The notes under the pieces are model-generated. The model made no database searches. It was not told the origin of the DNA and saw nothing but the letters and a program-made list of their open reading frames with translations. The translations under genes were made by a program, and so were the position numbers. A stretch of DNA of 64,000 nucleotides from Escherichia phage MirsaeidiM_Esher1. This document shows, piece after piece, positions 52,656 through 54,739 of the stretch. Position 1 is the first letter of the stretch, and every line of letters starts with the position of its first letter. The stretch is from sequence record PQ438048.1; one strand, written 5' to 3'.

Positions 52656-52734
52656 TGGAGGCGGGAATTGGATTTGAACCAATGATCTCCAGAATATGAA
52701 ACTGGCGAGGACGACCAGACTCCTCTATCCCGCT
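52656..52734 (-). tRNA. tRNA-Met (anticodon CAU), non-canonical A1/C72
   Basis: Hand-folded: T-arm ATTGG-TTCAAAT-CCAAT, anticodon loop TTCATAT, encoded CCA; first acceptor pair mismatched and U/U at 31-39. Confidence 0.65.
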
Positions 52735-52740
52735 ATTAGG

Positions 52741-52810
52741 TATCCCGTGCTGGATTCGAACCAGTATCACAATAAGCTGTGGAACTCTTATCCTATAAGT
52801 CTAACGGGAA
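52741..52810 (-). tRNA. tRNA-like element, probable pseudo-tRNA (no anticodon assignable)
   Basis: T-arm ACTGG-TTCGAAT-CCAGC and 6 of 7 acceptor pairs present, but no CCA and no proper anticodon arm. Confidence 0.25.
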
Positions 52811-52812
52811 AC

Positions 52813-52886
52813 TGGTTGTTTCGACAAGAATCGAACTTGTATCTCACGATTATCAGTCGTGGGTTCTACCATTGAACTACGAAACA
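52813..52886 (-). tRNA. tRNA-Ile (anticodon GAU)
   Basis: Perfect 7-bp acceptor TGTTTCG/CGAAACA, D-stem GTTC/GAAC, anticodon loop CTGATAA, T-loop TTCGATT, encoded CCA. Confidence 0.85.
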
Positions 52887-52892
52887 TTTAAT

Positions 52893-52969
52893 TGGTCGGA
52901 ATTGCAGGATTCGAACCTGCGACAATACGCTCCCAAAGCGTACACTCTACCAAACTGAGCTAAATTCCG
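52893..52969 (-). tRNA. tRNA-Pro (anticodon UGG)
   Basis: Acceptor CGGAATT/AATTCCG, anticodon arm TACGC-TTTGGGA-GCGTA, T-arm GCAGG-TTCGAAT-CCTGC, encoded CCA. Confidence 0.85.
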
Positions 52970-52974
52970 TTATA

Positions 52975-53050
52975 TGGCTGGTCTGTCTGGATTTGAACCA
53001 AACCTACGACAGTCAAAGTGTCGTGTGCTACCTGACTACACTACAAACCA
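52975..53050 (-). tRNA. tRNA-Gln (anticodon UUG)
   Basis: Acceptor TGGTTTG/CAGACCA (one G-U), anticodon arm CGACA-CTTTGAC-TGTCG, T-loop TTCAAAT, discriminator G, encoded CCA. Confidence 0.8.
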
Positions 53051-53148
53051 ATAAATCATTTAATGAAGGGCAACCAGAAGAGGTGTGAGAGAAGGAGAAA
53101 ACCATGAGTAAAAGAGAAAGTTTTCTGGCAACCCTTTATTAAATAATT

Positions 53149-53222
53149 TGGAGCGTTCTACGAGGATCGAACTCGTGCCGCCGACTTGGAAGGACGGAAT
53201 GCTACCGCTACACCAAGAACGC
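53149..53222 (-). tRNA. tRNA-Gly (anticodon UCC)
   Basis: Acceptor GCGTTCT/AGAACGC, anticodon loop CTTCCAA, T-arm ACGAG-TTCGATC-CTCGT, encoded CCA. Confidence 0.8.
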
Positions 53223-53233
53223 CCTACATCTTT

Positions 53234-53263
53234 ACTATACTACATTTTACTATTGGTTGTCAA
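53234..53263 (-). promoter_or_regulatory. promoter-like element TTGACA-N18-TATAGT, about 11 nt upstream of tRNA-Gly
   Basis: Minus-strand TTGACA (plus 53258-53263), TATAGT (plus 53234-53239). Confidence 0.5.
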
Positions 53264-53538
53264 TAGTTTTATTGAGTGGGACAGTGACGAGTATCCCTTT
53301 GGGTGACTAGCCCTACGTTCGGTAAGCTAACTTAAAATAATACAAAACCAAAGTCAAATATTATTCTTCGTTGCTGTCGATGGGAGAGCCGCTTCTTCTT
53401 TTACCCCATCCAACCCTACTCCGGTCAAGTTTCAGGTGACTCTTTTTGTGTGATCAACACAATACTAAGAACACTGTCTTTCGAACAGACCTTGTGCACA
53501 GGATACGACGATCAATCACAGTGCTCTTAATGTTGTGT

Positions 53539-53614
53539 TGGTGCTCCAAGTAGGACTCGAACCTACGACCTCATGCTTACAAGGCAAGTGCTCTACCAAC
53601 TGAGCTATTGAAGC
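53539..53614 (-). tRNA. tRNA-Thr (anticodon UGU)
   Basis: D-arm GCTC-AGTTGGTA-GAGC, anticodon loop CTTGTAA, AGGTCGTAGGTTCGAGTCCTAC closely resembles E. coli tRNA-Thr(UGU); encoded CCA. Confidence 0.85.
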
Positions 53615-53760
53615 ATATTGCGCCCCTTCAACCATGCTTGATGTTGACCAGAACACAGTTTAACTGTGGGAGGAGGAACACCGCAGTGGGCTTCAGTTGG
53701 ACGACTTACAGGGAGCGACCCTGTTTCTTTTCTGGGACTCGGCAGGATTCGATACCTGCA

Positions 53761-53850
53761 ATTCCAGAAGCCTCTTGGCTACTGGGGGTTTACCTTAACT
53801 CTACAATTCCAGAAGCCTCTTGGCTACTGGGGGTTTACCTTAACTCTACA
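53761..53850. repeat. perfect 45-bp tandem direct repeat, 2 copies
   Basis: attccagaagcctcttggctactgggggtttaccttaactctaca at 53761-53805 and again at 53806-53850. Confidence 0.95.
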
Positions 53851-53862
53851 AGTCCATAATTC

Positions 53863-53948
53863 TGGCGATGAGTATAGGATTTGAACCTATATCGTTCTTT
53901 CGAACACGGATTAACAGTCCGCCGCTTAAACCATTCAGCCAACTCATC
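53863..53948 (-). tRNA. tRNA-Asn (anticodon GUU) with unusual 15-nt variable arm
   Basis: Perfect acceptor GATGAGT/ACTCATC; anticodon arm GCGGA-CTGTTAA-TCCGT identical to E. coli tRNA-Asn; extra hairpin GTTC-GAAA-GAAC in variable region; encoded CCA. Confidence 0.7.
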
Positions 53949-53954
53949 TTAATT

Positions 53955-54042
53955 TGGTGGTGAGTGATGGAGTCGAACCACCCGAATCGCAATGATAACA
54001 GATTTACAGTCTGCCCCGCTACCCCTACGGAATTAACTCACC
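53955..54042 (-). tRNA. tRNA-Tyr (anticodon GUA), class II
   Basis: Perfect acceptor GGTGAGT/ACTCACC, anticodon arm GCAGA-CTGTAAA-TCTGT as in E. coli tRNA-Tyr, long variable arm, encoded CCA. Confidence 0.8.
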
Positions 54043-54172
54043 TAAATACTAATATTTAAATTCTTTTTAAAATAGCCAGTGTTCACACCACTAACTATGA
54101 GTTATCGGTAAGATGGTGGGGGCCATCTGCCGAAAGTTTACTCTATTAAAGTAAGCTATATTAAAAAGAACT

Positions 54173-54258
54173 TGGCGGTAGATGTAGGACTCGAACCTAC
54201 ACGCCGTTTCCGACTACAGTTTAGCAAACTGTCGTGGCTACCATTTCACCAATCTACC
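54173..54258 (-). tRNA. tRNA-Ser (anticodon GCU), class II
   Basis: Perfect acceptor GGTAGAT/ATCTACC, 3-bp D-stem, anticodon arm ACAGT-TTGCTAA-ACTGT, 15-nt variable arm, encoded CCA. Confidence 0.85.
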
Positions 54259-54262
54259 AATC

Positions 54263-54353
54263 TGGCGGAAGGAGGGAGAGTCGAACTCCCAAGGCTCTTT
54301 CAAGCTCGGCGGTTTTCAAGACCGTTTTCGTCGCCACGTCGATTTGCCCTTCC
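54263..54353 (-). tRNA. tRNA-Ser (anticodon UGA), class II, irregular D region
   Basis: Acceptor GGAAGGG/TCCTTCC, anticodon region CGGTCTTGAAAACCG matches E. coli tRNA-Ser(UGA); position 8 is C and the D region is longer than canonical, so the 5' boundary is approximate. Confidence 0.6.
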
Positions 54354-54361
54354 ATACTTAT

Positions 54362-54391
54362 AATCTAACATAAAATAATGTTTGTTGTCAA
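54362..54391 (-). promoter_or_regulatory. promoter-like element TTGACA-N18-TAGATT upstream of tRNA-Ser(UGA)
   Basis: Minus-strand TTGACA (plus 54386-54391), TAGATT (plus 54362-54367), tRNA 5' end at 54353. Confidence 0.5.
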
Positions 54392-54587
54392 TAGTTTTTT
54401 AAAACATTTTACCATGAATGGTGACTCCACCAACCCCCGTTCTCCACGAACGGTGCTCTTCGAGCATCTATGTCTTCTAATATAACCGTGGCCTTTGTTT
54501 ATAATGTCTGACATATTTGCCTCATTCTCTGCCACCATGATCAGTAGTGGGTTCAAATCACTTGAGCTAATTCATGTTAAAATGTTC

Positions 54588-54662
54588 TGGTGTCTTTACA
54601 AGGAATCGAACCTTGACTAAGAGTTTAGAAGACTCCTGTGCTATCCATTACACCATAAAGAC
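54588..54662 (-). tRNA. tRNA-Arg (anticodon UCU)
   Basis: Perfect acceptor GTCTTTA/TAAAGAC, anticodon arm GGAGT-CTTCTAA-ACTCT, T-loop TTCGATT, encoded CCA. Confidence 0.85.
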
Positions 54663-54664
54663 TT

Positions 54665-54739
54665 TGGTGGCCCTGGCTGGTTTCGATCCAGCTACCTATC
54701 GGTTATGAGCCGACAGCTCTCCCATTGAGCTACAGGGCC
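54665..54739 (-). tRNA. tRNA with CAU anticodon, tRNA-Ile2 (lysidine)-like or Met
   Basis: Perfect acceptor GGCCCTG/CAGGGCC, anticodon arm GTCGG-CTCATAA-CCGAT, T-stem GCTGG/CCAGC; acceptor and T-stem resemble E. coli tRNA-Ile2; T-loop ATCGAAA has A at position 54. Confidence 0.65.

Follow-up and report, generated by a model that had tools for sequence, protein, structure and literature searches.

The transfer RNA (tRNA) cluster at positions 52656 to 54739 of a 64,000-nucleotide (nt) stretch of Escherichia phage MirsaeidiM_Esher1 (PQ438048.1; the whole stretch is called the window below) is read here as an array of 12 CCA-encoding tRNA genes that would serve both to supplement codons and to replace host tRNAs cleaved by defence systems, its non-canonical members being inherited and maintained variants. 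A probability of about 0.8 is attached to this reading. The cluster as a whole is ordinary and has already been annotated in the public records of a well-sampled genus. Its sole element beyond what the searchable literature describes is a tRNA-Asn(GUU) whose variable region forms a short hairpin arm, a form that recurs, with compensatory base changes, in unrelated phage families.

Identity and gene content of the array

What the region holds is the tRNA gene array of an E. coli phage of the phAPEC8-like type (Phapecoctavirus). Phages of this kind belong to the subfamily Stephanstirmvirinae and are lytic E. coli myoviruses of about 150 kilobases (kb). Over 2.8 kb, many Phapecoctavirus genomes on deposit match it at 98-99% identity (ABPW7, BI-EHEC, anhysbys, ASO2A, and Mt1B1_P17 among them), with the same 12 genes over the whole cluster; the G+C content of the window is 39.2%. 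The window is set apart from these records by a private G39U substitution in its first CAU tRNA and an apparently private 45-nt duplication, both discussed below, and from Mt1B1_P17 and ASO2A by its allele of tRNA-Thr.

An earlier note on this DNA, made by hand-folding from the letters alone, had listed 12 minus-strand tRNA genes with their anticodons, and the list is borne out by ARAGORN, Rfam, and the GenBank record of ASO2A (Table 1). At default settings, ARAGORN reports ten tRNAs, all on the minus strand and with outer limits at exactly 52656 and 54739, the two misses being Ser(UGA) and Tyr. The Rfam model RF00005 (gathering score 29 bits) regains Tyr and passes 11 of the 12 genes at 39-73.7 bits; the covariance-model check that had been proposed thus came out as foreseen except for Ser(UGA), which stays under the gathering score. 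The ASO2A record, 98% identical and annotated with tRNAscan-SE, agrees on all 12 isotypes and anticodons (Met-CAT, Ile-GAT, Pro-TGG, Gln-TTG, Gly-TCC, Thr-TGT, Asn-GTT, Tyr-GTA, Ser-GCT, Ser-TGA, Arg-TCT, and Ile-CAT). The encoded 3′ CCA can be read straight from the sequence in 12 of 12 genes, and the rest of the 64-kb window yielded no further tRNA to ARAGORN and Rfam. Also confirmed are the U/U mismatches claimed for several anticodon stems, which lie at 31:39 in the first CAU tRNA, 30:40 in tRNA-Gly, and 28:42 in tRNA-Thr; the tRNA-Gly sequence is the same in the window, Mt1B1_P17, and ASO2A.

A tRNA-Asn with a class II-like variable arm

In textbooks, the bacterial class II tRNAs are those for Leu, Ser, Tyr, and selenocysteine (Sec), a canonical set to which a gene with the anticodon GUU does not belong. 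A review describes the long arm as specific to Ser, Leu, and bacterial Tyr (PMC4033280). The tRNA-Asn of the window is 86 nt long and has a variable region of 15 nt (53905-53891, GTTC-GAAA-GAAC-GAT) that folds into a stem of 4 base pairs (bp) closed by a GAAA loop, and so has the variable region of more than 10 nt in stem-loop form by which class II is defined. Its body comprises a 7-bp acceptor stem, U8 and G9, a 3-bp D stem, G13 opposite A22, and G73, while its anticodon arm has in common with E. coli tRNA-Asn the 19-nt string CGGCGGACTGTTAATCCGT; the E. coli tRNA-Asn used as the query has 100% matches among the tRNA-Asn genes annotated in 5425 of 5426 E. coli genomes. The length, the arm, and the host-like anticodon arm had all been pointed out in the earlier note and stand as described there.

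The likeness to class II tRNAs extends to the core, namely to the 3-bp D stem with G13/A22 and to G9. The long tRNA-Asn departs from that class in its arm, which is short (3-5 bp) and usually GNRA-capped, and in its acceptor stem and discriminator, which fit Asn and not Ser or Leu. The nematode nev-tRNAs similarly unite class II architecture with a class I anticodon, but they are charged with Leu and poorly expressed (PMC3333845), whereas the long tRNA-Asn is found in phages and tRNA arrays and is predicted to be charged with Asn.

The arm is not an oddity peculiar to the phage of the window, but a widespread phage form present in both cultured phages and viral contigs. The tRNA-Asn of phi92 (Justusliebigvirus) has 85 nt and the arm GAAC-GAAA-GTTC, that of an Epseptimavirus 86 nt and ATCC-GCAA-GGAT, that of Proteus phage Stubb (Novosibvirus) 85 nt and GTTC-GAAA-GAAC, and that of the T5-like AKFV33 83 nt and GTC-GAAA-GAC. 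Without recourse to an alignment, 48% of 93 distinct long tRNA-Asn were found to form a variable-region stem of 4 bp or more, as against 17% of shuffles; a GNRA tetraloop is present in 50 of the 93, and this is GAAA in 34 of the 50. A purpose-built covariance model matched every tRNA in the loci (537 matches), and its alignment was then filtered for Asn rows. In the resulting alignment of 60 distinct long tRNA-Asn, the members of which were not selected for forming the arm, the inner three arm pairs are formed in 80-92% of sequences, with four to five pair types each. Both sides vary at all four arm pairs in a separate alignment of 15 sequences, a set chosen for forming a 4-bp arm, whose 100% pairing is therefore by construction and of which only the variety of pairs is informative. 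These patterns of substitution indicate that the variable arm of tRNA-Asn is a maintained structure, with compensatory changes across unrelated phage families. No description of a long-armed phage tRNA-Asn was found in the searchable literature; the search took in neither subscription journals nor the 1980s papers on T5, and an earlier mention is possible.

Distribution of long-armed tRNAs

The viral loci were collected from IMG/VR with a pattern that joins the host-like anticodon-arm motif to a GGTTC placed 16-26 nt beyond it, which gave at least 120 loci. From these and the reference loci, ARAGORN folded a tRNA-Asn(GUU) of 79-90 nt in at least 100 stretches, at least 74 of them distinct and very diverse in their bodies. 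When both short and long spacings were allowed, 105 short and 15 long forms were counted among the 120 viral matches listed, so that 12.5%, or about one in eight, of the viral tRNA-Asn genes with a host-like anticodon arm are long among these matches; within tRNA arrays, the long share of the viral matches listed rises to about 23%.

A full scan of 185,579 bacterial and archaeal species, one genome each, returned only 65 stretches with the long pattern, about 20 of which hold a true long tRNA-Asn, mostly inside arrays of 7-36 tRNAs; Micromonospora and metagenome-assembled genomes provide examples. The tRNA-Asn query from the window is covered by no E. coli genome. The long-armed tRNA-Asn is hence strongly enriched in phages and nearly absent from cellular genomes. 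A BLAST match of the gene in E. coli was set aside, being a chance 35-nt match in yobD and nothing else. Among the cellular loci, L131, L132, L141, and L182 (Micromonospora and Verrucosispora) together with L147, L162, L186, and L190 are arrays of 10-36 tRNA genes, and some cellular arrays with a long tRNA-Asn also hold long Lys, Glu, or Ile-UAU tRNAs.

Nor is the arm limited to Asn, as long tRNAs for Cys, Thr, Trp, Ile-UAU, Glu, His, and Gly, often GNRA-capped, occur in the same viral contigs (Table 1). Long forms make up 6.4% of the other class I tRNAs in those contigs, compared with 2.3% in contigs where the tRNA-Asn is short.

The amino acid expected to be carried by the long tRNA-Asn

The identity set of E. 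coli asparaginyl-tRNA synthetase (AsnRS) consists of G34, U35, U36, and the discriminator G73. All of these are present in the gene of the window, whose anticodon loop reads CUGUUAA, and G73 is found in every long tRNA-Asn gene with an encoded CCA. The acceptor stem begins with U1 in 64% of long tRNA-Asn, as against 81% of ordinary tRNA-Asn, and TCC is the commonest start in both; the start GGA, seen in 79% of phage tRNA-Ser, is rare among the long tRNA-Asn. Because GUU and G73 are present, the acceptor stems are Asn-like, and the G1-A2-U3 of the window is unlike Ser, charging with Asn is expected, and the tRNA is probably charged by the host AsnRS.

The identity set of seryl-tRNA synthetase (SerRS) comprises a long variable arm, G2:C71, A3:U70, and C11:G24. 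The tRNA-Asn of the window has the arm, G73, and C11:G24, but it has the wrong acceptor pairs, with A2:U71 and U3:A70 in the places of G2:C71 and A3:U70. It could accordingly be asked whether the long-armed tRNA-Asn is a serine acceptor, through which SerRS would insert Ser at AAC and AAU codons by way of recoding, mistranslation, or dual identity. An extended variable arm and G73 are the features that SerRS uses most (PMC7609411), and the D arm of the tRNA-Asn (U8 G9, a 3-bp stem with G13/A22, and C11:G24) as well as its length of 86 nt mirror the tRNA-Ser(GCU) of the phage itself, the anticodon of which differs from GUU by a single base; the nematode variable-arm tRNAs that take Leu despite Gly or Ile anticodons offer a precedent (PMC3333845). 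Such an acceptor would have to do without the two SerRS acceptor pairs in a stem that is Asn-like across the phages, and it would have kept both AsnRS determinants in an anticodon arm identical with that of E. coli tRNA-Asn. With about 58 Asn codons per 1000 in the open reading frames (ORFs) of the phage, a general Asn-to-Ser substitution would moreover be costly. Serine charging is thus judged highly improbable, and the Asn identity is retained. If Asn is indeed what the tRNA carries, a class II synthetase can accommodate an additional arm on the side of the tRNA that enzymes of this class usually approach, which would bear on the rules of tRNA identity and on the design of orthogonal tRNAs.

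Two tRNAs with the anticodon CAU

The A1/C72 mismatch which the earlier note had reported in tRNA-Met is present, although it is not a defect, being instead a mark of bacterial initiator-type tRNAs. From its sequence features, the first CAU tRNA is initiator-type and not a standard member. Positions G2-G6 pair with 67-71 as in E. coli metY, with G2:C71 and C3:G70; the D stem (G10-A11-G12-G13 with C22-C23-U24-C25) contains A11:U24; metY has the identical variable loop, AGAUC, and T loop, UUCAAAU; and, as in metY and metZWV, there is no Watson-Crick pair at 1:72. Differences from metY lie in the bases themselves, which are CxA at 1:72 with A73 in metY and AxC with U73 in the phage tRNA, and in a D loop 2 nt longer than that of the E. 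coli initiator. In E. coli K-12, the best match, a weak one (E = 8), falls on metY, the tRNA gene flanked by argG and rimP. A mismatch at 1:72 recurs with different bases in relatives, as AxC in phiWec188, UxC in AMO3598, and CxU in both phi92 and Caulobacter phage Ccr5, while position 1:72 is A-U in Erwinia phage Omen, where the gene is annotated as tRNA-fMet, and in an Aeromonas phage. The annotated initiator tRNA of T5 has UxU at 1:72 and U73, and it also has no G:C run in the anticodon stem.

The anticodon stem of the first CAU tRNA consists of A29-U41, G30-C40, and U31xU39, and the label initiator-type is preferred to standard initiator because the three G:C pairs at 29-31:39-41 are missing. 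As regards conservation of the U/U stem mismatches, that at 31:39 is private to the genome of the window, its relatives having U31.G39. No record in the phage collection is identical to the gene, the best identity among the 80 closest records being 98.7%.

The suggestion in the earlier note that one of the two CAU tRNAs decodes AUA finds its candidate in the second, which tRNAscan-SE calls Ile-CAT in ASO2A and which matches E. coli tRNA-Ile, its best E. coli matches being 83-84% identical and annotated as such. The determinants for lysidine formation by TilS are C4:G69, C5:G68, and an anticodon stem of the G27.U43 type. All are found in this gene, whose acceptor stem reads GGCCCUG...CAGGGCC with C4:G69 and C5:G68 and whose anticodon stem has G27.U43; a tRNA-Ile2-type AUA decoder that would need lysidine modification is therefore supported. 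Of annotation, it follows that the first CAU gene should be relabelled as initiator-type and the second as Ile2.

AUA and AGA are the two rarest codons in E. coli. In the 84%-identical E. coli tRNA-Ile that was inspected, two tRNA-Arg genes come next (L303 1501-1753), a trio that we take to resemble the ileZ-argN-argO arrangement known from lambdoid Stx prophages. The window shares with this arrangement an Ile2-type CAU tRNA followed directly by a tRNA-Arg, for AUA and AGA; it differs in having a single Arg gene, in that the Arg tRNAs are not close in sequence, and in the surrounding phage.

Tyr, Ser(UGA), and the question of decay

The tRNA-Tyr carries a 3-nt insertion (auu) between position 9 and the D stem in the Infernal alignment, which the earlier note did not mention. 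It is 84% identical to the tRNA-Tyr of T5, which according to the T5 record can be converted into an effective amber suppressor. The C8 and the odd D region that had been remarked upon in tRNA-Ser(UGA) are real: four nucleotides, CAAA, connect its acceptor stem to a D stem of 3 bp, UCG/CGA. This D region, GCAAATCGACGTGGCGACGAAAAC, matches that of the T5 tRNA-Ser2(GGA), GCAAATAGAC-TGGCGACTAAACC, in which the D stem is UAG/CUA, a compensatory change. A tRNA-Sec or allo-tRNA fold for Ser(UGA) was considered and rejected, the Sec score being sub-threshold, many positions failing to pair, and an 8-bp acceptor stem being impossible.

Several observations weigh against regarding the non-canonical genes as maintained. 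Ser(UGA) fails RF00005, and its sole Rfam match is to tRNA-Sec at 37.4 bits, against a cut-off of 47. Pseudogene labels are attached in Mt1B1_P17 to Tyr and also to the first CAU tRNA. The latter has neither the A73 nor the three G:C pairs of E. coli initiators, and its private G39U at 52696, where 80 of the 80 closest phage records have G, turns U31.G39 into U.U. The searchable literature, moreover, holds no record of expression, processing, modification, or charging for the phage of the window or for any variable-arm tRNA-Asn.

Such points could be taken to mean that only the canonical tRNAs function and that Ser(UGA), Tyr, and the first CAU tRNA, perhaps along with Asn, are pseudogenes in decay. 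Beyond the sub-threshold Rfam score, the two genes missed by default ARAGORN, the private stem mismatch, and the Mt1B1_P17 labels, the same idea could draw on the Ser-TGA gene labelled a pseudogene in phi92 and on the two clearly degenerate tRNA-like elements within the cluster, one of which tolerates a 45-nt duplication (see below). In all four suspect genes, however, the 7-bp acceptor stem is intact, the T arm and a proper anticodon loop are retained, and CCA is encoded, while the degenerate elements are without CCA. The covariation of the Asn arm across families, the retention of the 1:72 mismatch with different bases in different genera, the compensatory D stem of Ser(UGA) relative to T5 Ser2, and the closeness of Tyr to a suppressor-convertible T5 tRNA are likewise hard to fit with decay, which is considered unlikely. 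Tyr, which is a tRNA-Tyr in ASO2A, and Ser(UGA) instead look like maintained variants, with Ser(UGA) as the weakest member of the array, and these two genes, labelled pseudo in some records, are probably genuine.

Codon use, host defence, and a possible function of the arm

Compared with background values for E. coli codon use, 41 ORFs of the window use ACA 4.5x, AGA 3.5x, GGA 2.7x, ATA 2.6x, CCA 2.0x, TAT 1.8x, AAT and AGT 1.7x, CAA 1.5x, and TCA 1.4x as often, and every codon read by the U34 tRNAs of the set is enriched. Codon supplementation is the classical explanation for phage tRNAs and has been applied to the related phage rV5 (PMC3606486). In the mechanism proposed, host RNA polymerase would transcribe promoter-defined units up to the intrinsic terminator that ends the cluster, host RNase P and 3′ nucleases would excise the tRNAs, and host synthetases would charge them. 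The cluster would thereby supply decoders for AUA, AGA, ACA, GGA, CCA, CAA, UCA, AAU, UAU, and AGU (1.4-4.5x over E. coli), and it would also provide phage copies of tRNAs destroyed by defence systems, namely Thr-UGU, Asn-GUU, Tyr, and the initiator.

Three tRNA-cleaving activities are pertinent to the latter role. Cleavage by the AriB nuclease of PARIS falls between positions 40 and 41 of Lys-UUU, Thr-UGU, and Asn-GUU, and the enzyme contacts the D loop as well (PMC12409363). Retron-Eco7 degrades tRNA-Tyr (PMC11555353, PMC12673091), and VapC cuts the initiator tRNA, mutations being reported in phage anticodon stem-loops (PMC10264068). Toxicity of PARIS is rescued by the tRNA-Asn of T5, and the own tRNA-Asn of phage Bas34 was reported not to bypass PARIS (PMC12409363). 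The T5 rescue was considered as support for the long-armed form and rejected as such, the T5 gene being an ordinary 78-nt class I tRNA; the rescue consequently says nothing on the long form. A further point on the adverse side is that the AriB site UAAUC/C (cut at the slash) is unchanged in the arm-bearing tRNA-Asn of the window.

The array might even be mainly a counter-defence device, made up of nuclease-resistant replacements or decoys, with codon supplementation secondary. Its content of Thr-UGU and Asn-GUU (AriB), Tyr (Retron-Eco7), and an initiator-type tRNA (VapC) corresponds to known targets (PMC12409363, PMC11555353, PMC10264068); the anticodon stem contains a U.U mismatch in three of the tRNAs; strong promoters stand directly ahead of several tRNAs; and, relative to the AriB site UAAUC/A, the Thr alleles have G39 in the window and C41 in Mt1B1_P17, the same positions as the escape mutations in T5 tRNA-Lys (PMC12409363). 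Yet every U34 tRNA fits an over-used codon, so that supplementation alone explains the set; the main target of AriB and PrrC, tRNA-Lys(UUU), is missing from it and present in phi92; and the Asn anticodon arm is the same as that of the host. A chiefly defensive array is therefore possible but doubtful. The Thr positions, the U.U mismatches, and the overlap with defence targets are suggestive only of an anti-defence role, which is held here as one part of the dual function alongside codon supplementation.

Since the Asn anticodon arm is that of the host, the variable arm, situated beside the cut strand, is the sole candidate feature if nucleases are escaped at all. The leading guess is that the arm changes how proteins that probe the face formed by the anticodon stem and core, such as defence nucleases, see the phage tRNA. 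More generally, it is put forward as a tentative proposal that phages have repeatedly given class I tRNAs a short, usually GNRA-capped arm as a phage-specific adaptation, either a shield of the anticodon-stem and core face against tRNases that cut or dock there or a handle by which phage factors would distinguish phage from host tRNA, with charging by AsnRS kept; tRNA-Asn(GUU) would be the main case, with Cys, Thr, Trp, Ile-UAU, Glu, and His tRNAs also affected. Equally speculative is the notion that the arm is an alternative to escape through the anticodon stem-loop, given that T5 has a class I tRNA-Asn with a mutated stem and its relatives have long-armed genes with a host-like stem. Should the arm guard against a tRNA-cleaving defence, it would constitute a new kind of phage escape.

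tRNA-like elements and the comparison with T5

A tRNA-like element missed by the earlier note and homologous to RNA3 of T5 lies downstream of tRNA-Asn. Besides an acceptor stem and a D-like segment (TAGAGTTAAGGTAAACC), it contains a long tetraloop hairpin that replaces the anticodon arm and a T arm with an 8-nt loop, TATCGAAT. T5 RNA3 (feature T5s07 of NC_005859) is annotated in the T5 record as a putative tRNA-like RNA. The homologues compared (those of the window, Mt1B1_P17, phi92, AKFV33, and T5) share a position directly 3′ of tRNA-Asn, the motif TAGAGTTAAG(G)TAAACC, the tetraloop hairpin, and an 8-nt T loop YATCRAAT, and their acceptor and T stems show compensatory changes. In 16 further loci, the element is found at a constant 64-71 nt after the Asn anticodon motif. 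These comparisons indicate that tRNA-Asn and RNA3 form a fixed module common to T5-like siphoviruses and to phi92-like and phAPEC8-like myoviruses. The element is missing from the annotation of the three Stephanstirmvirinae records inspected, namely Mt1B1_P17, ASO2A, and phi92.

Within the element of the window, a perfect 45-nt tandem duplication (2.2 copies, 53759-53856) doubles the D-like segment and the hairpin. Its junction is covered by none of 50,697 phage genomes, and the duplication seems to be confined to this genome, unless it arose in the assembly. A second tRNA-like element, also passed over in the earlier note, has an acceptor-like stem of 6 bp, a T arm of 4 bp around the loop TTCGAAT, and a 6-nt loop in the anticodon position; it has a near-identical copy in Mt1B1_P17 and is probably a degenerate tRNA by its fold.

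T5 (NC_005859) has 24-25 tRNAs, about twice the number in the window, accompanied by promoters, small ORFs, and stable RNAs annotated as tRNA-like. In each case, a large lytic coliphage carries its tRNA genes in an array with several promoters, and the two arrays have in common a homologous Tyr, a Ser with an odd D region, an Ile2-type CAU tRNA, RNA3 directly after Asn, and a CAU tRNA of initiator type that is mismatched at 1:72, has U73, and lacks a GGG/CCC run. The long-armed tRNA-Asn occurs elsewhere in the T5 family (AKFV33, Epseptimavirus, and Novosibvirus), in contrast to T5, which has the 78-nt class I form with a rewritten anticodon stem. The window further differs in coming from an unrelated myovirus subfamily, Stephanstirmvirinae, and in its gene order. 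With phi92, the window shares the long tRNA-Asn, an RNA3-like element, Ser-GCU, and an initiator-type tRNA, phi92 having additional Lys, Leu, and Phe tRNAs.

Layout, putative promoters, and structured spacers

On the transcribed strand, the order is P1, a 203-nt structured leader, Ile2, Arg, a small ORF, P2, Ser(UGA), Ser(GCU), a spacer, Tyr, and Asn, then the RNA3-like element, Thr, a spacer, P3, Gly, a spacer, Gln, Pro, and Ile(GAU), and lastly the second tRNA-like element, the initiator-type tRNA, and the terminator (Table 1).

Table 1. Coordinates and supporting evidence of features in and around the tRNA array, with related elements in other loci.
Feature	Position	Strand	Support and remarks
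Initiator-type tRNA(CAU)	52656..52734	minus	encoded CCA; ARAGORN, Rfam 48.6 bits
tRNA-Ile(GAU)	52813..52886	minus	CCA; ARAGORN, Rfam 72.2 bits
tRNA-Pro(UGG)	52893..52969	minus	CCA; ARAGORN, Rfam 67.9 bits
tRNA-Gln(UUG)	52975..53050	minus	CCA; ARAGORN, Rfam 55 bits
tRNA-Gly(UCC)	53149..53222	minus	U30.U40 mismatch; CCA; ARAGORN, Rfam 56.1 bits
tRNA-Thr(UGU)	53539..53614	minus	U28.U42 mismatch; CCA; ARAGORN, Rfam 73.7 bits
tRNA-Asn(GUU), class II-like variable arm	53863..53948	minus	86 nt; CCA; ARAGORN, Rfam 62 bits
tRNA-Tyr(GUA), class II	53955..54042	minus	CCA; Rfam match 53958-54042, 39 bits
tRNA-Ser(GCU), class II	54173..54258	minus	4-bp variable arm, GAAA cap; CCA; ARAGORN, Rfam 56 bits
tRNA-Ser(UGA)	54263..54353	minus	G73, acceptor start GGA, CCA; relaxed ARAGORN and tRNAscan-SE in ASO2A
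tRNA-Arg(UCU)	54588..54662	minus	encoded CCA; ARAGORN, Rfam 66.3 bits, ASO2A
tRNA-Ile2-like tRNA(CAU)	54665..54739	minus	encoded CCA; ARAGORN, Rfam 64.5 bits
tRNA-like element homologous to T5 RNA3	53734..53855	minus	no anticodon, no CCA
Second tRNA-like element	52742..52809	minus	relaxed ARAGORN only; no anticodon, no CCA; between Ile(GAU) and the initiator-type tRNA
Promoter-like site P1	54949..54978	minus	TTGACA, 18 nt, TAGGAT, TG extension; upstream of leader and tRNA-Ile2
Promoter-like site P2	54362..54391	minus	TTGACA, 18 nt, TAGATT, with TG
Promoter-like site P3	53234..53263	minus	TTGACA, 18 nt, TATAGT; 11 of 12 consensus positions; ends 12 nt before tRNA-Gly
Intrinsic terminator-like hairpin	52522..52540	minus	AGCCTCC...GGAGGCT then TTTTT; closes the cluster
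Structured leader RNA	54740..54942	minus	abuts the 5′ end of tRNA-Ile2
RNA3-like element in other loci	L003 2591-2657; L006 362-435; L304 7878-7950 (minus)		
Other long class I tRNAs	among L007-L126, e.g. L011, L056, L058, L059, L063, L069		

The putative sigma-70-type promoters P1, P2, and P3 have the common context AAACTATTGACA...TATGTTAGRAT. The -10 element of P2 ends 9 nt ahead of tRNA-Ser(UGA), and the region is 83% conserved in phi92, where it again stands directly upstream of the Ser-TGA gene. Consensus promoter sites are no more numerous in the region than in shuffles, which counts against the proposed transcription units, and the assignment therefore rests on the near-consensus hexamers, the common context, and the conservation of P2 in phi92. 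At the other end, ASO2A has a terminator annotated at the equivalent place.

The ends of the leader pair with one another (GTGGTAACAG, 54935-54926, with CTGTTACCAC, 54755-54746), and its minimum free energy is -76.8 kcal/mol, compared with -53.1 +/- 4.2 kcal/mol for shuffles (z = -5.6), none of 200 shuffles being as stable. Two further spacers on the minus strand, 54043-54172 (z = -4.2) and 53051-53148 (z = -5.7), also have unusually stable folds with paired ends, and the remaining spacers are unremarkable in the same shuffle comparison. The three structured spacers may be processing elements, or they may be stable RNAs like those annotated in the tRNA region of T5.

The segment between the last tRNA and the terminator (52568-52655, minus strand) is 78% conserved in phi92, where the last tRNA that precedes it is a different one; it holds the hairpin AUAUCGCU...AGCGGUAU, and its overall fold is not significant (z = -1.9). 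The small ORF between tRNA-Arg and P2 (54368-54556, minus strand) would encode 63 amino acids from a TTG start, its 3′ end crossing the promoter, or about 49 from an internal ATG behind a GAGG ribosome-binding motif; no PHROG match was found for it.

A mosaic segment at 53563-53803 has about 240 nt in place of about 83 nt in Mt1B1_P17 and ASO2A. It brings in a 117-nt spacer and a different tRNA-Thr(UGU) allele, unlike that of most Phapecoctavirus genomes. A BLAST search against E. coli for an origin from thrU gave no specific answer, as this allele matched many Lys, Val, and Arg tRNAs through D and T arms of a generic kind. ABPW7 and BI-EHEC do align across the Thr segment.

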